A stretch of DNA of 64,000 nucleotides from Thermoproteota archaeon (GTDB taxonomy: Archaea; Thermoproteota; Thermoprotei_A; EX4484-217-1; JAPDJV01), in assembly GCA_029258925.1 (NCBI GenBank), contig JAPDJV010000009.1, positions 3,256 to 67,255 on the forward strand. The letters run 5' to 3'. The first letter of the stretch is position 1. Each line of letters starts with the position of its first letter. Shown here one piece after another: positions 2,190 through 61,516 of this stretch. The notes below the pieces were generated by a model. The model was not told the DNA's origin. It worked only from the letters and a program-made list of their open reading frames with translations, and did not search any database. Made by a program: the position numbers and the translations under genes.

Positions 2190-3254
2190 ATGTGTGCTAA
2201 GAGGATACATATAATTGATTTACCTAAGAAAATTGTTGTTGGAAGAAGTGTTAGATACAACATATCACAGTACATAAAGGAGATTTTACCAAATATTAGT
2301 TCCTGCCTCGTAATAACTGGCCCCCACGTATATAAAATTGCAACTAAGGAAATATTGGAGTTTCTTGAAGAAAGTGGTATTAATGTGAGTAATATGATAG
2401 TGGAAGACTCCTCTATTAAAACTGTCGAGAAAGTGCTTAATGAAGTCAGAGATTTGAATGTAGACTCCATAATCAGTGTGGGAGGAGGAAAGGTAATAGA
2501 CGTAGGCAAGTTTGTGGCATTTAAGAAAAATATTCCTTTCATAAGTATGCCTACTGCTGCATCCCATGACGGGATAGCATCTCCATTTGCATCTATAAAG
2601 GGGTTGGAAAGGCCCACTTCTGTTAGAACAAGAGAACCTGTGATGATAATTGCAGACACGGAGATCATAACTAAAGCGCCACGAAGACTCCTAATATCCG
2701 GTTCAGGAGACGCTATTGCCAAGTTGACTGCAGTGCTCGACTGGCGTCTTGCATACAAGTTGAAAAACGAGTACTACGGGGAATATGCAGCATCATTGGC
2801 GCTGTTATCCGCTAAACATATCATAAACTTTTCGGACGTCATCAGACGTTACGATGAGGAGGCTGTTAGAGTTGTAATAGAGGCGTTGATAAGTAGTAGT
2901 ATAGCCATGTGCATAGCTGGGTCAACTAGACCTTGTAGTGGATCAGAACACTTGTTCAGCCACGCTCTTGACGTTGTAGCTCCTAAACCAGCGTTACACG
3001 GAGAGCAGTGTGGCGTTGGAACCATAATGATGTCTTACCTTCATGGGAGGAACTGGCGTAAAGTAAAGAACACTTTGAGGAAGATAGGAGCTCCAACTAC
3101 TGCTAAGGAGCTTGGGATCTCCGATTATCATGTAATTAAAGCCCTTACTATAGCCCACAAAATTAGGCCCGAAAGATATACTATTCTAGGGGAGTCCGGA
3201 TTAACATGGGAGGCTGCTGAGAATCTAGCGAGGATCACGGGAGTAATAGATTAA
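2190..3254 (+). CDS. egsA: glycerol-1-phosphate dehydrogenase [NAD(P)+]
   Basis: 354 aa; GGGKVIDVGK ... ASHDGIASP ... SGSGDAIAKLT motifs of the archaeal G1PDH / iron-ADH fold. Confidence 0.9.
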   Translation: MCAKRIHIIDLPKKIVVGRSVRYNISQYIKEILPNISSCLVITGPHVYKIATKEILEFLEESGINVSNMIVEDSSIKTVEKVLNEVRDLNVDSIISVGGGKVIDVGKFVAFKKNIPFISMPTAASHDGIASPFASIKGLERPTSVRTREPVMIIADTEIITKAPRRLLISGSGDAIAKLTAVLDWRLAYKLKNEYYGEYAASLALLSAKHIINFSDVIRRYDEEAVRVVIEALISSSIAMCIAGSTRPCSGSEHLFSHALDVVAPKPALHGEQCGVGTIMMSYLHGRNWRKVKNTLRKIGAPTTAKELGISDYHVIKALTIAHKIRPERYTILGESGLTWEAAENLARITGVID

Positions 3255-23869: not shown

Positions 23870-23978
<109 letters not shown>

Positions 23979-37917: not shown

Positions 37918-38766
37918 ATGACAGATAGATGGCCTGCTGTAGCTGGAGCATTCTATGAGGCTGATAGAGAGAGGCTAATAGAGCAGATAGAATGGTGTTT
38001 TAAACATCCACTTGGCCCAGGGATGTTGCCGTCTAGGACTACTATAGGTGAGCATAAGATTATAGGCTTGGTTTCACCTCATGCGGGATACATGTATTCA
38101 GGCCCTATTGCAGCTCATGGATATTACGAGCTTTCTAAGAGGGAAGCTGTAGACACGGTAATTATATTAGGTCCTAATCACACGGGAATGGGAAGTGGAG
38201 TGTCTATTTATCCTGAAGGATATTGGATAACACCTCTGGGAAAGGTTGGTGTCGATAGAGAACTAGGGATGTTGATAGCTAAATTTAGTGAGATAGCTGA
38301 TCTTGATGAGATGGCACATCTACATGAGCACTCGATTGAAGTGCAGATACCCTTTCTTCAGTATATTTGGGAAACTTTCAGTATAGTTCCGATAACAATG
38401 TTCATGCAAACTCCAGTTATAGCGAGAAAACTGGCTAGGGGAATTTATGAGGCGGAGAGGGAGCTTGGGAAAACCGTAGCTGTTATTGCGAGTACTGATT
38501 TCACCCATTACGAACCTTATAGTGCAGCTTATAGAAAAGATAAGATGGCTATTGAAGCAATTTTAAGCCTTGACTCTAATCTATTATATGAGAGAATAGT
38601 TCAATACGATATATCTATGTGTGGTCCGGGTCCAGTAATGACTTTAACAGAGTACGCTAAATTAAAGAATGATATTAAACCACGTTTACTGAAATATGCT
38701 ACATCTGGGGATATAACAGGTGAGAAAGCTGCAGTAGTTGGTTATGCATCAATAGTGTTTTATTAA
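37918..38766 (+). CDS. MEMO1-family protein (AmmeMemoRadiSam system protein B)
   Basis: 282 aa; AGAFYEAD ... VSPHAGYMYSGPIAA ... GPNHTG ... HSIEVQIPFL signature of the Memo/UPF0103 family. Confidence 0.75.
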   Translation: MTDRWPAVAGAFYEADRERLIEQIEWCFKHPLGPGMLPSRTTIGEHKIIGLVSPHAGYMYSGPIAAHGYYELSKREAVDTVIILGPNHTGMGSGVSIYPEGYWITPLGKVGVDRELGMLIAKFSEIADLDEMAHLHEHSIEVQIPFLQYIWETFSIVPITMFMQTPVIARKLARGIYEAERELGKTVAVIASTDFTHYEPYSAAYRKDKMAIEAILSLDSNLLYERIVQYDISMCGPGPVMTLTEYAKLKNDIKPRLLKYATSGDITGEKAAVVGYASIVFY

Positions 38767-38837
38767 GTGATTTTCAAATCCTAGGATTTAAATATCATGC
38801 TTAACAAGTTCATGCAATTAGAATTGGAGAAGGCCTC

Positions 38838-39653
38838 ATGAAGAATCAAATAGACATCTCAGTTGCTACAGGAGTTCCCGTGTTTGGGGTCTATGTTCCG
38901 GATAGAAATATTCCTCATTTAATGCTTCCTTTCAGGGATGTCAGGATTCTTCTGTCTCTGGAATACTCTAATTCTGGATTTAATGATGTGGTTTTAATTA
39001 GAGGTGTAGGGGGTAGAGCTGGAGAGGAGCTTATGCTTGCAGATATTATCAAGAATTTCATACGTGAAGTTAAGGAATTTTTAGGATTTAGGAGCGCATT
39101 TAGGGTTAGAGTTGAATATGAGAGCCTCTTATCTCCCTTGCAATTATACGCTGCATCGACTATGTCGATTTTAAGTGCTATGCGTGAATACTTGAATAAT
39201 TCTGTGCTCGACAAGAATATGATAATATCACTGGGTGAGAGAATAGACAGAAGAGTGAGGCTAAAAATACCTCAGTCAATAATAAATGCCTACAGAATTG
39301 TGAGCATGGAGGAAAAACCTGTTGTATATCGTAGAGGCGAGGGAGTAGTAGTTTTACCTTTTACCGAAGTTTTATCAGGGTTTGCAAACATGGTGAAACC
39401 ACATTATTGGTCGGATTATGAGATCAAGTATTTCCTCGACCACCCTTTAATGGATGTAGTTGTTCACGGAATAAGCATTACAGTAATAGAGTCTGCGAAG
39501 AAGTCTTCTGAAAGTGTTGACATATTATCTTCCCTATTTGAGGCAGAAGTACATCTCCAGAAGATTATTATTAAGGGAGGGGGTAAATGTAATTTGTTAA
39601 AACTCTTTCCCGATATTGCTGGAGCACTAGCAGTATCGATCAACACTAGTTAA
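38838..39653 (+). CDS. GHMP-kinase-like protein with a degenerate ATP-binding motif II (possible divergent mevalonate-pathway kinase), first gene of the ipk-idi2-GGPPS cluster
   Basis: 271 aa; the C-terminal KIIIKGGGKCNLLKL resembles GHMP motif III (KLTGAGGGGC), but motif II is replaced by SPLQLYAASTMSILSAM with no Gly-rich loop. The gene's position suggests an isoprenoid role. Confidence 0.35.
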   Translation: MKNQIDISVATGVPVFGVYVPDRNIPHLMLPFRDVRILLSLEYSNSGFNDVVLIRGVGGRAGEELMLADIIKNFIREVKEFLGFRSAFRVRVEYESLLSPLQLYAASTMSILSAMREYLNNSVLDKNMIISLGERIDRRVRLKIPQSIINAYRIVSMEEKPVVYRRGEGVVVLPFTEVLSGFANMVKPHYWSDYEIKYFLDHPLMDVVVHGISITVIESAKKSSESVDILSSLFEAEVHLQKIIIKGGGKCNLLKLFPDIAGALAVSINTS

Positions 39654-39667
39654 ATCAGGTGGAATTA

Positions 39668-40474
39668 ATGAAGTCTAATCCTCCAATAATTATCAAGCTA
39701 GGTGGAAGTGTTATAACAAATAAGCGGAGGCCTCTCAGTACTAGGAAGAGGGTCATTAAGAGACTTGGACTGGAAATAAAGAAGTTCCTGCAAAATAATC
39801 CTGATGAGAAGATAATTCTAGTCCATGGAGGAGGATCATTCGGCCACCCACTTGCAAAGAAATTTATTGATGAAAGAGGATACTTTGACGATGACGCATT
39901 CGTAAGAATAATACATGTCATGAGGGAGCTAAACCAGATAGTATGCAAAATACTTATAGACGTCGGCTTACAGGTCTACCCGATTCAAACTAGTTGTGTT
40001 TTCAGATACGAGAGAGGAGGCCTAGTATTTCTATCTCAAAACCTACTTGAAGAGGCATTAAATAGGAACCTAACACCACTTCTCCACGGCGACATTGTTA
40101 TATGTGATTCAGGCTATACAATATTGTCAGGAGATACTATAGTTGCTTACCTAGCTAAGAGTTTTGGCTCTAAAAGAGTGTTCTTCGTTACTGATGTGTC
40201 AGGAATATTTCTTGATTTCGAAAAGAAGAAAATTATAAGGAAAATATCTATCGGGTCTATAAAATCTAAAATTAGAAGCCATTTACCTGAAATTCCGTCA
40301 ATTCTTGAATATGGGGTCTTCGACGTCACTGGTGGAATAAGAACAAAGTTGGTGGAATTTACAAAATATGGTCAACCTGGACTAATAATTACTATTCTCA
40401 ACGGTTTGAAGCCCGGGAACTTATATAAGAGTTTATCTGGCCACCGTCTGGGAACACGTATAATAGTAGTGTGA
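39668..40474 (+). CDS. ipk: isopentenyl phosphate kinase
   Basis: IIIKLGGSVITNK ... ILVHGGGSFGHPLAKKF amino-acid-kinase fold of archaeal IPK. GGTGG Shine-Dalgarno 7 nt upstream. Confidence 0.8.
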   Translation: MKSNPPIIIKLGGSVITNKRRPLSTRKRVIKRLGLEIKKFLQNNPDEKIILVHGGGSFGHPLAKKFIDERGYFDDDAFVRIIHVMRELNQIVCKILIDVGLQVYPIQTSCVFRYERGGLVFLSQNLLEEALNRNLTPLLHGDIVICDSGYTILSGDTIVAYLAKSFGSKRVFFVTDVSGIFLDFEKKKIIRKISIGSIKSKIRSHLPEIPSILEYGVFDVTGGIRTKLVEFTKYGQPGLIITILNGLKPGNLYKSLSGHRLGTRIIVV

Positions 40475-40660
40475 TGAAGGTCATTATTTTAGAGGAAGCG
40501 TGAAATGAGACATAAGACTCTCCTATACAATCTAACAGAAAATTGGGTGAAAGCTTTGTATTGTCTGCAACTAACTGCCAGCAACTTCATAGAAATATCA
40601 AAATATTCGTGCTAACAATCAAATCCTACAGCAAGTAATGTAAGTAAATATCGTGGGCAT

Positions 40661-41809
40661 GTGGGGCGAGTGATTGTGAGTAATATTGGAGGCCGCAAGC
40701 TAGACCATATAGAAATATGTCTGTCAAGGTTTGTGGAAGCTAGGGTCTCCCCCGGATTTAACGATATTTACTTCATTCATAGTTGCATTCCAGAGTTGAA
40801 TCTGGATGAAATAGATATTTCAACAATGTTTCTCGGGAAGAGGCTGGAGGCACCATTCATAATATCAGGAATTACAGGAGGACACGAGAAGAGCCGTCAA
40901 ATAAACAAGGTGATTGCAGAGGTAGTAGGAGAACTAGGCCTAGGTATGGGTGTAGGGAGTCAGAGGGCAGCTATAGAATGTCCCTCTCTCGAATACACGT
41001 ACTCTGTTGTCAGAGAAGTTGCTCCCAGTGCTCTGATAATAGCAAACATAGGTGCTTCCCAAGTGGTTAAGGGTTATGGCATCAAAGAGATTATGAGAGC
41101 CATAAAAATGGTGGATGCCGATGCAATAGCAATTCACGTAAATCCTCTTCAGGAGAGCCTTCAGCTGGAAGGAGAAGCCCAGTGGAAGGGCTTCCTCTCT
41201 AAATTATCGGATATAGTATCAAATCTGGAAGTACCAGTAATAGTAAAGGAGGTAGGTTGCGGCATTTCTATGGAGGATGCTAGATTATTGTGGGATTCAG
41301 GAATAAGATACGTTGATATAGCTGGTCTAGGCGGTACAAGCTGGGCTGCAGTGGAAATGTATAGAGCTGAGAAACACGGTTTAGAGGATTTAGCTGCTGT
41401 TGCCAGAACGTTCTGGGACTGGGGAATTCCGTCAGCAGTCTCTCTAGTTGAAGTAAAATTGGCTGCTCCTGAACTAAAGGTTATAGGCAGTGGCGGCGTT
41501 AGAAGCGGGATAGATGCTGCCAAGCTTCTATCACTGGGAGCAGATGTAGTTGGATTGGCTTTGCCCGTACTTCGTGAAGCAGCTAAGGGTAGAAGAGCGC
41601 TGAAGAAATATCTCGAAAGACTAATAAAGGAGTTGAAAATTGCCATGTTTCTTATTGGAGCTGCAAATTTAGGCGAATTGAGGAAGAAGCAAATTATAAT
41701 TACTGGAAAAACTAGAGAATGGCTTGAAATAAGGGGAGTGAACGTTAAGAAATTGTGTAAAATTGACAGAAACATGTATGAGGTTTATTATCATGAAGAG
41801 AATACTTGA
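40661..41809 (+). CDS. fni: isopentenyl-diphosphate delta-isomerase, type 2 (FMN-dependent)
   Basis: 382 aa; KLDHIEICL ... ISGITGG ... GVGSQRAAIE ... TIM-barrel IDI-2 motifs. Confidence 0.85.
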   Translation: MGRVIVSNIGGRKLDHIEICLSRFVEARVSPGFNDIYFIHSCIPELNLDEIDISTMFLGKRLEAPFIISGITGGHEKSRQINKVIAEVVGELGLGMGVGSQRAAIECPSLEYTYSVVREVAPSALIIANIGASQVVKGYGIKEIMRAIKMVDADAIAIHVNPLQESLQLEGEAQWKGFLSKLSDIVSNLEVPVIVKEVGCGISMEDARLLWDSGIRYVDIAGLGGTSWAAVEMYRAEKHGLEDLAAVARTFWDWGIPSAVSLVEVKLAAPELKVIGSGGVRSGIDAAKLLSLGADVVGLALPVLREAAKGRRALKKYLERLIKELKIAMFLIGAANLGELRKKQIIITGKTREWLEIRGVNVKKLCKIDRNMYEVYYHEENT

Positions 41810-42791
41810 TTACTGTAGGAAAGTAAATGATATGATAATCCCTCTTATAGAGGATTTACTCTCTCAATGTCCTGAACCTTTGGCATCAGCCTCAAAATAC
41901 CTCATTCTCGCTGGCGGGAAAAGGCTTAGACCAACACTTCTTTTATTAGCGGTGAGAGTTTCAGGAGGCGATGTTGAGAAAGCTATTCCTGCGGCTGTGT
42001 CCATAGAGCTATTACATAACTTCACATTAATCCACGATGACGTCATGGATAGAGATGAAATGAGACGTGGAGTTCCCACAGTTCACAAGATTTGGGGAGA
42101 ACCCATGGCAATATTAGCTGGAGACTACTTGTTTTCTAAGGCATACGAGGCTCTCCTAAAACTTGTTGAAAATGGAATTGACTATGGGAGTGTCGTCGAG
42201 GCAACTAGGGTATTAACATGGGCTGCCTCCACCGTGGCAGAGGGCCAGTCATTTGACATAGAGTTTCAGGAGAGAGATGAAGTTGACGAGAGAGAATATA
42301 TTGAACTCGTTTGGAGAAAAACTGCTGCTTTATTCATTGCCTCCCTCAAAATAGGAGGGATAGTGTCTAAAGCCTCTTCTGAAACAATATCCCTTCTGGA
42401 AGAGTACGGTTACAACATGGGTATAGCATTCCAAATATATGATGACATATTGGGGGTTATAGCCGATGAGAAGAAGCTGGGTAAACCCTTATACAGCGAT
42501 ATAAGAGAGGGGAAGAAGACTATTATAGTAATACACGCGCTAAGCAAGGCTAATGCGGAAGATAGGGAAATACTGCTCTCAGCTTTAGGTAAACGAGATG
42601 CAACTATAAGAGAGCTTGCCTCAGCGGTAGAAGTTCTACGGAGAACCGGATCTATAGATTATGCTAGGAGAAAAGCTACATATTATGCTAAGAATGCTAT
42701 TAGCAAATTAAACAAGATTAAATCTCATGACGAAGAAGCGCTCGAAATGCTTAGAGAGCTGGCGTTGTTTGTTGTTGAAAGAGAGTTTTAA
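41793..42791 (+). CDS. idsA: geranylgeranyl diphosphate synthase (short-chain trans-prenyltransferase)
   Basis: FARM LIHDDVMDRDEMRRG and SARM IYDDILG motifs. The ATG at 41793 overlaps the end of idi2. Confidence 0.85.
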   Translation: MKRILDYCRKVNDMIIPLIEDLLSQCPEPLASASKYLILAGGKRLRPTLLLLAVRVSGGDVEKAIPAAVSIELLHNFTLIHDDVMDRDEMRRGVPTVHKIWGEPMAILAGDYLFSKAYEALLKLVENGIDYGSVVEATRVLTWAASTVAEGQSFDIEFQERDEVDEREYIELVWRKTAALFIASLKIGGIVSKASSETISLLEEYGYNMGIAFQIYDDILGVIADEKKLGKPLYSDIREGKKTIIVIHALSKANAEDREILLSALGKRDATIRELASAVEVLRRTGSIDYARRKATYYAKNAISKLNKIKSHDEEALEMLRELALFVVEREF

Positions 42792-42803: not shown

Positions 42804-43364
42804 GTGAGCATAATGAAGTACTTAGACGTCTATTCTTTTCCCAAAATATTCATAGAACATGAGAACCTGCATTCCGGGAATAGAAGAGTAGTAGTGTTAG
42901 ACGGTGAAGACATTATAGAACTCGTAAATATTAGAGACTTCCATCCCAAGGGGAAAGCTAGGTTTTTCCTTCAAGAAGTATATGAAGACGCTTTAAATCA
43001 AATAATAGACTTGGAGGGGCGTGTAGTTAAGTTATCATTCATCGTATACGTGCCCTGGCATGGAAAATACATGCTAATCGAGAGAGGCACTGAGTTAGAT
43101 ATAATCGAGGTGAGCGGGAAGCAGGTTTTTCTTCTCGTTAGAGAAGGGGACTTGATACACTTTAACGATAAGATCGCAACTATTATTACAGGCAAAAGGG
43201 AGGCGAGAACTTTTAGAAGCCCCGCTAATGGAGTAATAGTATATATCAGTAGGATACTGGATATTACTACTAGAGATGTTTACATAGTATTAGTAGCAGA
43301 GGAAGGTGATGTACGTGCTTTCGAAGGACGTGGAAAGAATAATACTGAAGCATGCATTAATTAA
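42804..43364 (+). CDS. hypothetical protein (186 aa), overlaps the gltX start
   Basis: No recognisable motifs and a coding-like composition. Its 3' end overlaps the GluRS start by about 58 nt. Confidence 0.3.
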   Translation: MSIMKYLDVYSFPKIFIEHENLHSGNRRVVVLDGEDIIELVNIRDFHPKGKARFFLQEVYEDALNQIIDLEGRVVKLSFIVYVPWHGKYMLIERGTELDIIEVSGKQVFLLVREGDLIHFNDKIATIITGKREARTFRSPANGVIVYISRILDITTRDVYIVLVAEEGDVRAFEGRGKNNTEACIN

Positions 43365-46814: not shown

Positions 46815-49800
46815 TCATTTTACAAAAGGTGCAAATAAGGGGTCGATTTTTCTCTTCAACTTTACTATCTCCTTAAGTACGAGTAGTTCGTCGTCACTTA
46901 GTTCTGATCGAAACTTTGTTAACAAAGTACTTATATCTCTTTCAGACATATCTGTGTACATTAAATCTCCTTCTTCAATATGCCTGCCAACAATGGCCTT
47001 CCCCTTTATCGATATAGCTACTTGCATGCCAGTTCTTGCTTCAGGAATGGGTTTTCCTCGATCCTGTATTTGGAGTATCTCTCCTATTCTCCTACAGTCC
47101 TTTCTCATTACTGGATAGCCGGGTTTGATGACTCCCCCAAGGACTTCGACTCCAACTACTATTGGGGCACTCCTCCTGAAGACATATCCCGGAAGTATGC
47201 GTATTTTGCCCGGTCTTATTAGTGTAGCAAGCTGCCGCCTTTTCTCCTCCTCTTTCATTTTTACAAGCCAGTCCTCATATTCCTCTATTAGTCGATATAT
47301 AACATTGTTCATGAATATTTTGACCCCTTCTTTTGCAGCTTCCTCCTCTACGCCTGGCAGTATCTTCACGTTAAACGCTAATATGACCCCGTAATACTTG
47401 TTTGTCCTAGCAGTTATGGATGCTTCTATTATGTCCCGCTTTGTTATAGGGCCTACGTCGGCTAACCTAACGGGGATCCCTCTCCTCTTCAACGCATTAA
47501 CTATGGCCTCGAGTGTTCCAAGAGCATCTGCTTTTACTATGACTCCGCTGATTTCCTTCTTTATTCTAACCTCCTGGAGCTCCTCCTCAACCTTCTTTTT
47601 GTATTTCTCTATCTCCGAGGTTTCCCAAACCACGTATAGTGGGGAACCTGCTATGGTATCATCTAAGTTTGGTGCTGCTATCTTCACCCCCACTGCTGCC
47701 GATACTTCTTCCATACGCATAAACTTGTCTTCTGGCGATCTTATCTCTTGCAGAGGCTTTGGCATTAATAGGGCTCTTATTTTCGTGACTATTGGACCCC
47801 TCATACCCCCTACTACGATTAAGTCGTTTTTCCTTATTATCCCATCATATAGTATTATGTCCACTGTCGCTCCTAATCCAGGCTCCTCTTTCACTTCAAG
47901 AACTACTCCTTTACCAGGGCCTTCAGCATAGATCAGTCTTTTAGCCATGTACTGCTGTGTTAGACCTGCTAGAACAGCTAGGAGTTCAGGAATTCCTTCT
48001 CCAGTTACTGCTGAAACCGGAACTATTGCTATATTCCTCGTGAAGTCCCTGATTCTATCAAATCTGTCAGCCTTGAATCCTAGTTTGAACATCTCTCCTA
48101 TGATTTCATAGATTTTGTCGTCTAGTATTCTGATGGTGTTTGGATCTTGCTTACGTATTGATAGTAGGAATGGTTTCCCAGGCTGTGGCTTCCATCCATG
48201 TATTCTATCAATTTTATTGGCTGCTATCAGGAATGGGACTTTCCTCTGCCTCAATATTTCAATACTTTCATATGTCTGCTCTTGAAACCCCGATATTATG
48301 TCTACTACGAGTATGGCAATATCTGCTACGCTTCCACCCCTCATCCTAAGATTAGAGAAGAGTTCGTGGCCGGGGGTGTCAATGAATAGTAAACCGGGTA
48401 TTCTAAGGCTTATGGGAATGATTTTTTTGAGCGGTTTACATATGTTCTCTATAATTTTTGTAGGTATGAGGCTTGCACCCACGTGTTGTGTCATTGATCC
48501 GGGCTCCCTTCTTGCAACAGCAGTACCTCTAATCTTATCTAGGAGAGTAGTGTTGTGGACTATTATGCCATTAGCAATAAAGTTCTGTGTTGCTGGAACA
48601 GTTAAGTCATATAATGCTCCATTAAACTTAACTTTCTTAAGACCCTTAACTCTAATAAATGCGATATCGTCTAGTTGCGGCATCTCTCTCAAACAGTCCT
48701 TCAATAATATTGTAGAAGACTCCATGTTGCCTTCTCTCACACTAATCCCTTTGAAGCTACTAGACACTAGTTCATTTAATAGACGTCTTTTACTTGGACA
48801 CTTAAAGCCTATGTATTTCGTATAATTCTTAAGACTCTCGTAATCCTCTATGATGATGTTTCCTCCACCATTCTCTTCAAAAAACGTTGAAATAATACCG
48901 TATCTAAGGAGAAGCCATTTTATCTGTTTTAGGAAAATCTTAGAATGATGCGAGATCATTATTCTCCTACATTTTAAATCTACTTCTCCTCTTACATCAA
49001 AAAATCCTTTCAGAAATTCCGAGGAAATGTTGATTGGAGCTATTTGGACTATCTCCGGAATCTCTTCATATTTTATCTTCGGGTAGTTAAAGAATTCTTT
49101 TAGAATTAATCTAATACACCTAAAATACACACTACTAGAGTTATTTATACTTGGATCTATTATTGTAGCAATATTCTTCTCATATTCAGAGTGAGGGCAA
49201 TCCAAAATATCCACTTTGTCTATGGTCTCATTGAGGCCGGCCATTACTCCAGCTATGTAAAATGCTTCTTGCCACAGCTCTTTACTTTCAAGATGCTCGA
49301 AAATATTCTCCGTGATATTTCCAGCTGAATTATCATTGTGATACGCTTCAACTTTATCGGCTACGTATTTTTCGAAGTACCAGTCTTTAGCATTCGATTC
49401 TACTGCTTCACAATCGGTCTCGAAGGAACTTGTTTCGAATCCATGTTTATCGAGAACCTCCTTCAAGAATTCACTAAACTCCTTTCTGTAGGGTACTTTC
49501 TTAGGTACAGCTATATAATCATTAGTTGAAATAGCACGTGCCTTCTTCCACCCCTCAATAGTTAGAAATGGATGGTCAGGGGTAACCCTCACAGTACTCC
49601 CATTACTTAATTCAACTTCGAGCAGCTCTCCATCATATTTAATCCTCCATACTTGAGACGCACCTCTAGCTACTATTTTACCTCCATCAAGAGTGTAGAC
49701 TTCTATGTTTCCATTAACGTACTCGTACTCGCCATCTTTTACTATGTTCCCATTTTTGTCAAATAATTCAGAAATGGGGACAAATCTCCCATTATTTAGG

Positions 49801-49910
49801 AATACTATTTCATCTGGGTGTAGGCATTTACCGTGATCTACGTGACCTAAAACCACTACAATTGGCTGCCTAAGCTTTTTTTCCGCCGAATCCACTTTGT
49901 TCACCTTCAC
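46815..49910 (-). CDS. infB: translation initiation factor aIF5B (IF2 homolog) containing a 425-aa intein in the P-loop
   Basis: Extein GHVDHGK|...|TTLLDKIRG...DTPGHE...NKID, plus the beta-barrel and C-terminal domains of aIF5B. 1031 aa total against roughly 600 for an intein-free aIF5B. Confidence 0.9.
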   Translation of the reverse strand: MKVNKVDSAEKKLRQPIVVVLGHVDHGKCLHPDEIVFLNNGRFVPISELFDKNGNIVKDGEYEYVNGNIEVYTLDGGKIVARGASQVWRIKYDGELLEVELSNGSTVRVTPDHPFLTIEGWKKARAISTNDYIAVPKKVPYRKEFSEFLKEVLDKHGFETSSFETDCEAVESNAKDWYFEKYVADKVEAYHNDNSAGNITENIFEHLESKELWQEAFYIAGVMAGLNETIDKVDILDCPHSEYEKNIATIIDPSINNSSSVYFRCIRLILKEFFNYPKIKYEEIPEIVQIAPINISSEFLKGFFDVRGEVDLKCRRIMISHHSKIFLKQIKWLLLRYGIISTFFEENGGGNIIIEDYESLKNYTKYIGFKCPSKRRLLNELVSSSFKGISVREGNMESSTILLKDCLREMPQLDDIAFIRVKGLKKVKFNGALYDLTVPATQNFIANGIIVHNTTLLDKIRGTAVARREPGSMTQHVGASLIPTKIIENICKPLKKIIPISLRIPGLLFIDTPGHELFSNLRMRGGSVADIAILVVDIISGFQEQTYESIEILRQRKVPFLIAANKIDRIHGWKPQPGKPFLLSIRKQDPNTIRILDDKIYEIIGEMFKLGFKADRFDRIRDFTRNIAIVPVSAVTGEGIPELLAVLAGLTQQYMAKRLIYAEGPGKGVVLEVKEEPGLGATVDIILYDGIIRKNDLIVVGGMRGPIVTKIRALLMPKPLQEIRSPEDKFMRMEEVSAAVGVKIAAPNLDDTIAGSPLYVVWETSEIEKYKKKVEEELQEVRIKKEISGVIVKADALGTLEAIVNALKRRGIPVRLADVGPITKRDIIEASITARTNKYYGVILAFNVKILPGVEEEAAKEGVKIFMNNVIYRLIEEYEDWLVKMKEEEKRRQLATLIRPGKIRILPGYVFRRSAPIVVGVEVLGGVIKPGYPVMRKDCRRIGEILQIQDRGKPIPEARTGMQVAISIKGKAIVGRHIEEGDLMYTDMSERDISTLLTKFRSELSDDELLVLKEIVKLKRKIDPLFAPFVK
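48552..49826 (-). mobile_element. intein (Cys1 ... His-Asn C-terminus) with LAGLIDADG-type homing endonuclease domain, inserted after GHVDHGK of aIF5B
   Basis: Residues 29-453 of the aIF5B ORF: CLHPDEIVF ... (Hint block A), YIAGVMAG and FLKGFFDVRGEV (DOD motifs), ... NGIIVHN followed by the +1 Thr of the extein. Confidence 0.8.
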
Positions 49911-59791: not shown

Positions 59792-61516
59792 ATGCTTAGA
59801 AGGATCGAATTTAAATACGTCTTAATGTCAGCAATAATAATACTCACACTCCACTTCCTCTCAATGGTTCTAGGATTACCTGCCATAATAGTGATTGGCC
59901 GTAAAACATTTGTTTACAACTGTAACGAGCTGGCTTACCTAACTTATACTCAGCTAACTGTCTTGGGCAATGTATTAATTATTGCAGCTATGAACCTTAT
60001 TGAAAGAGACAGGTTATCTTCGATAATGCTTCTAGCATACTCCATTCTTCTATATTTCTACTTGGGGGAGCCTGAAACAATAGCGTTAACAACGTTAACG
60101 TTGAACATTATCATAATCTTCATATATGTTAATAAATGGGGTGTAAGATTATTCAAGGAATGTCTAGTATATTTAATATTTGAATTAGTATTATTGGAAT
60201 CCATAGTGTTCGTTACATTAATCTACTCTGCTTTCTCCACTCAATACCTTTCTCTAATTCTACTAGTCTTCGAGAAAAGTATTTACGCGTTGCTCACAGC
60301 ATTACTCCCATTTACGATTATAATGTTATTCCTCAAGTGGATCCCAGAAGTCGTTTCTGCATGGAGGAAGAAGCGCTCTAGGAATATTAGGGGGGAAACT
60401 ATTCTATCTGGATTCAACGCGCTTTTAGCTTCACTGATCATAGCAGAACTACTAATAGTATTACCTTACCTCGCAAATCTGGGAAACCCTATCCCATCAG
60501 TATCCGAGGACACGAAAATCTATGTTCATAGTATAAGCCTAATAGAGGATAAAGGATTTTCCTACTTATTTAAGGGATGGCTTGATCCATCGTTATGGGG
60601 TAAAAGAGAATATTGGGGTGCTCAAAAACCACTTCACATACTCTTCCTTTACATAGTACACAAGTACCTTGGGGTAGACTCTCTTATACTAGTTGATTAT
60701 CTTCACCACGTGATTTTCATCGCAATAATAATTTACCTTATCAGGGAGATCTCAAGGGATTTATTAAGTAGTGAAGTAGGTGATCTAGCATCCTTGCTTA
60801 TTGCATCAGGCTCCATTACTGCAGCATTTAGAGTAGGTGGTTTTCAAGCAAATGAAATGTGCTTAGCTGTACTCCTAGGATACTTCATGATGCTTATTAG
60901 AGTTAACAATATTAGAAACATTTTGATCAGCATATTACTAGGAGTATTATCGTGGTTCATCCATCCATGGTCTGCCACGTTTTTCGTTCTATCGAGTATC
61001 CCATTCACCATTATAATGTATAATATGGAGAAGGATAGACTTAAGTTCTTGAGGAGGATTTTAATAATTCTCCCAGTCCTAGTTACTCCAATAATATCAA
61101 TAATTTACTTTGTAGGACTAAATCGAGCCTCATATGTAATCACCGCGTTTCTAACTAGAGCAATCGGATCTGAAGCTTTGCCTTCAAATATAGTGGATCT
61201 ATGGAGCTTTATGCTGGAGTCTTCGACTATAGCAACTCTCCACTATTGCTGGTCAAGCATGAATATGCCCTTCATCTACATACCACCATTACTGACATCA
61301 TATGATCCTCTAACATTGGCATTAATATCAACGGGTTCAATTCCAGCTTTAATCTCTGGAGCTGCAATATGCTTTCGAATTCTCCTACTAATACCCATAG
61401 AGATCACTGCTGCATCACTCTATATTAGAACAAATAAGCTAGTTCAATTATTAGCAATATTGTCATCGTTAAACATGTCTCTCCAAGTAATAATAAATTC
61501 CACTATAATAACATGA
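59792..61516 (+). CDS. polytopic integral membrane protein (574 aa, more than 10 predicted TM helices), function unknown
   Basis: Long ORF of mostly hydrophobic 20-residue segments with short polar loops; no soluble-domain motifs recognised. Confidence 0.5.
   Translation: MLRRIEFKYVLMSAIIILTLHFLSMVLGLPAIIVIGRKTFVYNCNELAYLTYTQLTVLGNVLIIAAMNLIERDRLSSIMLLAYSILLYFYLGEPETIALTTLTLNIIIIFIYVNKWGVRLFKECLVYLIFELVLLESIVFVTLIYSAFSTQYLSLILLVFEKSIYALLTALLPFTIIMLFLKWIPEVVSAWRKKRSRNIRGETILSGFNALLASLIIAELLIVLPYLANLGNPIPSVSEDTKIYVHSISLIEDKGFSYLFKGWLDPSLWGKREYWGAQKPLHILFLYIVHKYLGVDSLILVDYLHHVIFIAIIIYLIREISRDLLSSEVGDLASLLIASGSITAAFRVGGFQANEMCLAVLLGYFMMLIRVNNIRNILISILLGVLSWFIHPWSATFFVLSSIPFTIIMYNMEKDRLKFLRRILIILPVLVTPIISIIYFVGLNRASYVITAFLTRAIGSEALPSNIVDLWSFMLESSTIATLHYCWSSMNMPFIYIPPLLTSYDPLTLALISTGSIPALISGAAICFRILLLIPIEITAASLYIRTNKLVQLLAILSSLNMSLQVIINSTIIT

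Follow-up and report, generated by a model that had tools for sequence, protein, structure and literature searches.

The gene examined here, called X below, is an ATG-started open reading frame of 271 aa at positions 38838–39653 (+) in the ORF listing of the window, i.e. the whole 64-kb stretch of DNA that was analysed. Gene callers gave the same 271-aa protein in six independent public assemblies, which represent two strain variants differing by two residues, and the ORF is intact in every assembly compared. Directly upstream lies a Memo/AmmeMemoRadiSam B-family gene (37918–38766, +), assigned by Pfam and NCBIfam matches and by locus comparison, and 5' of this gene are ribosomal-protein and RNA polymerase subunit genes with S2 as the last. 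Across related loci Memo is the gene immediately 5' of mevalonate kinase (MVK), X or isopentenyl phosphate kinase (IPK). Downstream of X follow the genes for IPK (39668–40474, +; NF040647, 2.4e-55), type 2 IPP isomerase (IDI2; 40661–41809, +; TIGR02151, 3.7e-125), geranylgeranyl diphosphate synthase (GGPPS; 41763–42791, +; NF041003, 5e-115) and a DUF2118 protein (42804–43364, +; PF09891, 6e-26). The DUF2118 gene is conserved as the final gene of the cluster, and after it comes a gene for a class-I Glx-tRNA synthetase (PF00749). The ATG of IPK at 39668 is only 14 nt past the stop of X in the window, and this gap together with the three model matches for IPK, IDI2 and GGPPS confirmed the placement of X in the initial annotation, directly upstream of IPK and at the head of ipk-idi2-GGPPS.

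A putative TATA-box-like archaeal element (TTTAAATA, 38787–38794, +) could be read from the sequence 44 nt 5' of the X ATG, and a GGAG (38826–38829, +) precedes this start codon. The spacer between IPK and IDI2 is ≈190 nt in the window (40475–40660), while the same genes abut or overlap in relatives; no Rfam family matched this spacer. The DUF2118 gene is found 3' of GGPPS in the window and in L004–L006, L010, L035 and L086–L096, these being the loci that contain IDI2-GGPPS and have sequence reaching past GGPPS. The Hadesarchaea loci L016 and L017 are exceptions to this rule, and in Thermogladius-type loci DUF2118 comes directly after IDI2. Besides PF09891, the DUF2118 protein of the window has a weak biotin/lipoyl-like match. 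It is an uncharacterised but tightly linked member of the isoprenoid cluster.

Searches with the single sequence of X gave no meaningful match in Pfam or NCBIfam at E ≤ 1. Neither PF00288 nor PF08544 was matched at E ≤ 1 by X or by any of 12 relatives, the NCBIfam models for MVK (TIGR00549 and NF003036) were not matched by X even at E ≤ 1, and phmmer found no match for X among the PDB sequences. The earlier statement that X is unrecognisable by ordinary sequence search therefore holds for Pfam, NCBIfam and PDB sequences alike. In a word-indexed search of 5.8 billion proteins X retrieved itself only, and exhaustive phmmer analysis of 1.84 billion cluster representatives yielded five weak relatives of 260–283 aa (E 1e-11 to 3e-4). 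Members of the X family are listed as hypothetical proteins at NCBI. For one member, the JGI/IMG copy is called ‘mevalonate kinase’ and the near-identical NCBI protein is hypothetical (P0007/P0139, Pyrofollis japonicus PYJP_18660; L089, 10001–10852).

The interval from Memo to IPK was compared across archaea by scanning genomes with the neighbouring S2 protein as the seed. The X family has ≈25 relatives within Desulfurococcales/EX4484-217-1, Acidilobaceae, Pyrodictiaceae (Pyrofollis japonicus) and Nezhaarchaeales, and every member retrieved occupies the Memo-X-IPK slot (>20 loci, four lineages). In two Desulfurococcales-labelled MAGs (L004 and L005) the slot holds an X homologue (E 1e-15 and 4e-17, respectively). 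Four Nezhaarchaeales-type MAGs (L012–L015) and an Acidilobaceae MAG (L035) have slot proteins of ≈250–280 aa that lack kinase motifs and can be aligned with X. Further members come from Acidilobaceae MAGs, another Desulfurococcales MAG, hot-spring metagenomes and the cultured P. japonicus (PYJP_18660), and a metagenome scan with a family sub-alignment added seven loci, all of one type. The ORFs of the family are intact and of similar length (253–283 aa) in all four of these deeply separated lineages. In locus L084, where the larger cluster is broken, Memo, X and IPK are still together, and in Acidilobaceae and Pyrofollis X and IPK overlap by 11–49 nt.

A canonical MVK occupies the same slot in Culexarchaeia-like loci (L006 and L010) and in Bathyarchaeia (L019, L020, L022, and L028), in line with the earlier suggestion that X sits where MVK is found in other archaea. 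These slot MVKs carry the motifs PIAVGLGSSAS and KITGAGGGGS. In Hadesarchaea nothing separates Memo from IPK, and in Thermogladius Memo abuts IDI2.

Comparison of profiles linked the X family to MVK. Using hhalign, a 12-sequence alignment of the family matched three syntenic MVKs with 96% probability (E 3.8e-9). Global hhalign of the family against 40 MVKs gave 98.3% probability (E 1.2e-13) over 270 columns, and 97.1% (E 1.3e-10) with a 24-sequence family alignment. The family HMM hit the MVKs of L006 and L010 with E-values of 3e-13 and 5e-11, and a PDB profile search with the family had the S. aureus MVK 2x7i as its best match (E 0.005). An AlphaFold2 model of X built with a 13-sequence alignment reached a pLDDT of 81.2 and a pTM of 0.84; the sequence of X alone gave a pLDDT of 38. 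When this model was compared with the PDB using Foldseek, MVKs ranked first (2x7i, E 1e-9; 4hac and 2oi2; 2hfu, TM 0.70), followed by GHMP decarboxylases. There were 115 PDB matches at E ≤ 0.001, and the best 50 of the 115 were GHMP enzymes. According to the model, X is a protein with a two-domain GHMP fold.

Profile search and structure prediction both point to MVK (2x7i) and to the GHMP fold. Together with hhalign, the MVK matches of the model and the synteny, they support the description of X in the initial annotation as a degenerate GHMP-kinase-like protein. X is ≈55 aa shorter than the syntenic MVKs, and its reduced length had been pointed out correctly as well. We conclude that X descends from mevalonate kinase, and that the X family is an unannotated, degenerate new branch of a well-known superfamily. 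This makes it moderately surprising to specialists.

The fate of the kinase motifs was followed by mapping the functional columns of MVK onto X in the global profile alignment with the X family. Lys, Asp and His residues (Lys9, Asp138, and His16 in M. mazei) are important for MVK according to mutagenesis and structures, the His being stereo-selecting (PMC6283576). The remnant of motif I covers residues 12–27 of X (38871–38918, +). The position of the motif I Lys is Gly12 in X and Pro in 19 of 24 relatives, and the Glu and His of the MVK GEH are replaced by Val18 and Tyr19, the His position again being Pro in 19 of 24. Of this motif, Gly17 and Pro26 alone are found in every member. At the position of motif II (residues 94–107, YESLLSPLQLYAAS; 39117–39158, +), as given by profile alignments against PIAVGLGSSAS, the GLGSSAS of MVK is aligned to SPLQLYA. 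The absence of motif II noted earlier is thereby corroborated, with SPLQLYAAS located exactly where MVK has GLGSSAS, and a Gly/Ser loop is present in none of the 24 family members. No conserved Asp was found at or near the position of the catalytic Asp in either alignment register of the X family.

Motif III had been thought to be retained as KIIIKGGGKCNLLKL, and this part of the initial annotation has to be corrected. In the global profile alignment, the place of motif III (KITGAGGGGSIIAL in MVK) is taken by residues 255–268 (KLFPDIAGALAVSI; 39600–39641, +). Here KITGAGGGG of MVK is aligned to KLFPDIAGA (residues 255–263), so that no Gly run remains, and X also has a deletion of the helix found before motif III in MVK. 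The GGGK loop (residues 247–250; 39576–39587, +) is upstream of the true position. In the family alignments no relative conserves it, and in the AlphaFold2 model it is the only internal stretch with a pLDDT below 50. We therefore rejected GGGK as motif III and regard it as a chance Gly run. Judged by its residues, X is predicted to be no longer able to bind ATP or transfer phosphate.

Other parts of the protein have been kept. The strand YRRGEG (residues 164–169; 39327–39344, +), located by family alignments, hhalign and PDB alignment, matches that of the syntenic MVKs residue for residue. As the 24-sequence global hhalign alignment shifts register near this strand, residue assignments there were taken from the 12-sequence hhalign runs and the PDB alignment. 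In the latter, Tyr164-Arg165-Arg166 of X correspond to Tyr167-Arg168-Arg169 of the L. major MVK, in which the carboxylate of mevalonate is bound by Tyr167 and Arg169 (PMC6283576). All members of the X family have Tyr164 and Arg165, and the third position, which is that of the carboxylate-binding Arg169, varies. A H..G..V.EA helix is common to the X family and MVK. In addition, the family has a conserved N-terminal loop, G-x-P-x-P-G-x-x-N-P, in place of the GEHxVVxGxP of MVK, although X of the window departs from this N-terminal motif of its own family. The invariant or near-invariant polar residues are Tyr164, Arg165, Glu218, a Glu near 168 and the Asn-Pro of the N-terminal loop. Binding of a ligand via the Tyr-Arg strand is possible on this evidence.

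X is the fastest-evolving gene of the cluster, with a rate about twice that of IPK and 3–4 times that of Memo. The copy in the window is the most diverged, sharing 21–23% identity with the L004 and L005 proteins, where Memo shares ≈60% and IPK 38–40%. In the least saturated pairs dN/dS was 0.17–0.29 for X, and the same comparison gave 0.09–0.21 for IPK and 0.03–0.09 for Memo. The values for X indicate purifying selection and hence constraint; a within-species comparison of X contained too few substitutions to gauge selection. The rapid divergence and the failure of every database family to recognise X might suggest a decaying, functionless mvk remnant awaiting deletion. We give hardly any weight to this explanation, as the four lineages, although deeply separated, all have intact ORFs of 253–283 aa, dN/dS stays well under 1, the family has invariant residues, the model of X is confident and well folded, and X is translationally coupled to IPK. 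A truncated or pseudogenised ORF was likewise rejected.

A canonical mvk elsewhere in the genome, which the initial annotation had proposed looking for, was sought by running an MVK HMM against the ORFs of the window and the fetched flanks. This gave no canonical MVK in the 64-kb window, nor within 7–10 kb of any family member. A GHMP kinase gene 4 kb from X in L084 was considered as MVK and rejected, since it encodes homoserine kinase. A protein search with MVKs returned only Culexarchaeia- and Bathyarchaeia-type MVKs among the best 120 matches listed. However, a published survey scores MVK, IPK, acnX1, acnX2, and AMPD as 1 each in GCA_015661855 (SZUA-1508) and likewise in GCA_004347965 (WYZ-LMO8), and Hyperthermus is also scored MVK=1 (Table S3 of PMC11052028). 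L005 and P0005, the homologue closest to X, come from the SZUA-1508 MAG, and L014 comes from the WYZ-LMO8 MAG.

The MVK entries of that table were filtered by BLASTP (E < 1e-15, >70% coverage) against the M. jannaschii MVK, with the caveat that the methods also cite gene neighbourhood (PMC11052028). When proteins of the X family were compared with 120 canonical MVKs, the best E-value was 5e-8 and the coverage was below 50%. The X family fails such a filter, and the MVK counted in SZUA-1508 and WYZ-LMO8 should therefore be a gene other than X. The published table thus points indirectly to coexistence of the X family with a canonical MVK in these two genomes (PMC11052028).

These results also bear on whether X could be the only MVK of the organism, extremely diverged and with an unconventional phosphate-binding site or donor. 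X is positionally equivalent to mvk, the 64-kb window and the surroundings of the homologues yielded no other MVK, and one JGI record names a homologue ‘mevalonate kinase’. Against this, the residues important to MVK chemistry are all missing, with Pro or hydrophobic residues in their place (roles according to PMC6283576), and both SZUA-1508 and WYZ-LMO8 have a separate MVK on record that passes a strict BLAST filter. Moreover, other archaea have their MVK outside the slot, the Hadesarchaea and Thermogladius loci having neither MVK nor X there. We consider a sole, extremely diverged MVK very unlikely. Overall, X is unlikely to be either a working kinase or a pseudogene in decay.

The initial annotation had left three options for X, namely a divergent kinase, a non-catalytic paralogue, or an enzyme of a variant route. 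The non-catalytic paralogue fits best, because none of the catalytic residues is left and because two of the carrier genomes are scored as having a canonical MVK. As the kinase residues have all been lost and the place in the operon has nevertheless been kept, X is most likely a non-catalytic helper and not an enzyme of the known pathway. We find it fairly probable that X is an MVK paralogue that is catalytically dead and has been retained to serve the IPK/Memo module in a non-catalytic way, as a partner or as a ligand binder. An ancestral mvk would have been duplicated, after which the copy elsewhere in the genome would have taken over the catalytic role and the operon copy, X, would have been retained under purifying selection for a non-catalytic one. 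X would then most likely act as a stoichiometric partner and/or ligand binder together with the co-translated IPK and/or Memo, with which it may associate physically. The retained Tyr-Arg strand may hold the ligand, which could be mevalonate or one of its phosphorylated derivatives.

A more tentative explanation is that X is an ATP-independent enzyme on a GHMP scaffold, acting on a mevalonate-derived carboxylate. The invariant polar residues of the family would also suit a new enzyme, and the invariant Tyr, Arg and Glu, the new N-terminal loop, the strict operon context with isoprenoid enzymes and the purifying selection on X all fit this explanation. There is also a precedent: mevalonate-3,5-bisphosphate decarboxylase of the Thermoplasma-type pathway evolved from an ATP-dependent GHMP decarboxylase, and it is a mevalonate-pathway protein with a GHMP fold that no longer uses ATP (PMC9254496). 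Unlike X, however, this protein comes from the decarboxylase branch (DMD/PMD) and is a proven enzyme, and the best matches of X are MVKs. The archaeal pathway is complete in SZUA-1508 and WYZ-LMO8 according to Table S3, with MVK, acnX1/2, AMPD and IPK all scored as present in these carrier genomes, and there is therefore no vacant step for X. The fast evolution of X and the departure of the window copy from the N-terminal motif of the family would also be unusual for an essential enzyme. We therefore regard such an enzyme as possible but rather doubtful. Equally speculative is a broader version, in which the X family, built on an MVK scaffold, serves archaeal isoprenoid synthesis either as a novel enzyme independent of ATP or as a regulatory subunit that senses a metabolite; here the Tyr-Arg strand and the P-x-P-G-x-x-N-P loop would bind a mevalonate-derived ligand, and X would control or assist IPK and/or Memo.

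The dead paralogue that we favour can be compared with known proteins of the superfamily. Like X, MVK (EC 2.7.1.36; PF00288 and PF08544; TIGR00549) has the two-domain fold, the profile homology and the position between Memo and IPK, and it shares the YRRGEG strand and the H..G..V.EA helix with X of the window. In contrast to MVK, X lacks the motif I Lys and His, the motif II loop, a conserved catalytic Asp and motif III. It is also ≈55 aa shorter, has lost the helix before motif III and lies below all curated family cut-offs. Non-catalytic relatives are known among eukaryotic GHMP proteins. Gal3p, a yeast galactokinase paralogue without kinase activity, and XOL-1, a regulator in C. elegans, both have kinase-derived GHMP folds and serve as ligand sensors or regulators without phosphotransfer. 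Gal3p coexists with an active paralogue. It has retained the GHMP motifs together with its capacity to bind ATP and galactose, whereas nothing of the ATP loop is left in X. Gal3p and XOL-1 also differ from X in being unrelated to isoprenoid metabolism. GAL3 was among the GHMP structures in the PDB alignment.

For their membrane lipids, archaea rely entirely on the mevalonate pathway. To our knowledge, the list of enzymes of this pathway is considered complete. The X family is conserved, selected and unannotated, and in several thermophilic lineages its gene is found in the core operon between Memo and IPK. The family suggests an accessory layer that has so far gone unrecognised and may involve regulation, complex formation or channeling. 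It also provides a handle on the unexplained but widely conserved linkage of Memo with mvk/ipk. A full-text literature search found no account of a dead or paralogous archaeal MVK. Since labels are mixed, with ‘mevalonate kinase’ for at least one public record and hypothetical protein for others, pathway reconstructions could mistake a dead protein for MVK or overlook it altogether.

Some other features of the window were observed along the way. An Rfam tRNA match of 104 nt (23870–23973, +; 50 bits) is not reported by ARAGORN and is probably an intron-containing archaeal tRNA. A 1031-aa aIF5B/IF-2-type GTPase (46815–49910, −) contains an intein with a LAGLIDADG domain, as marked by Pfam on the identical gene of L001, and a 574-aa ORF (59792–61516, +) is without a Pfam match at E ≤ 0.001. 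Finally, a Fe-ADH_2 family protein (1e-35) encoded at 2190–3254 (+) is possibly sn-glycerol-1-phosphate dehydrogenase, which, if true, would make it a second lipid-synthesis gene in the window.
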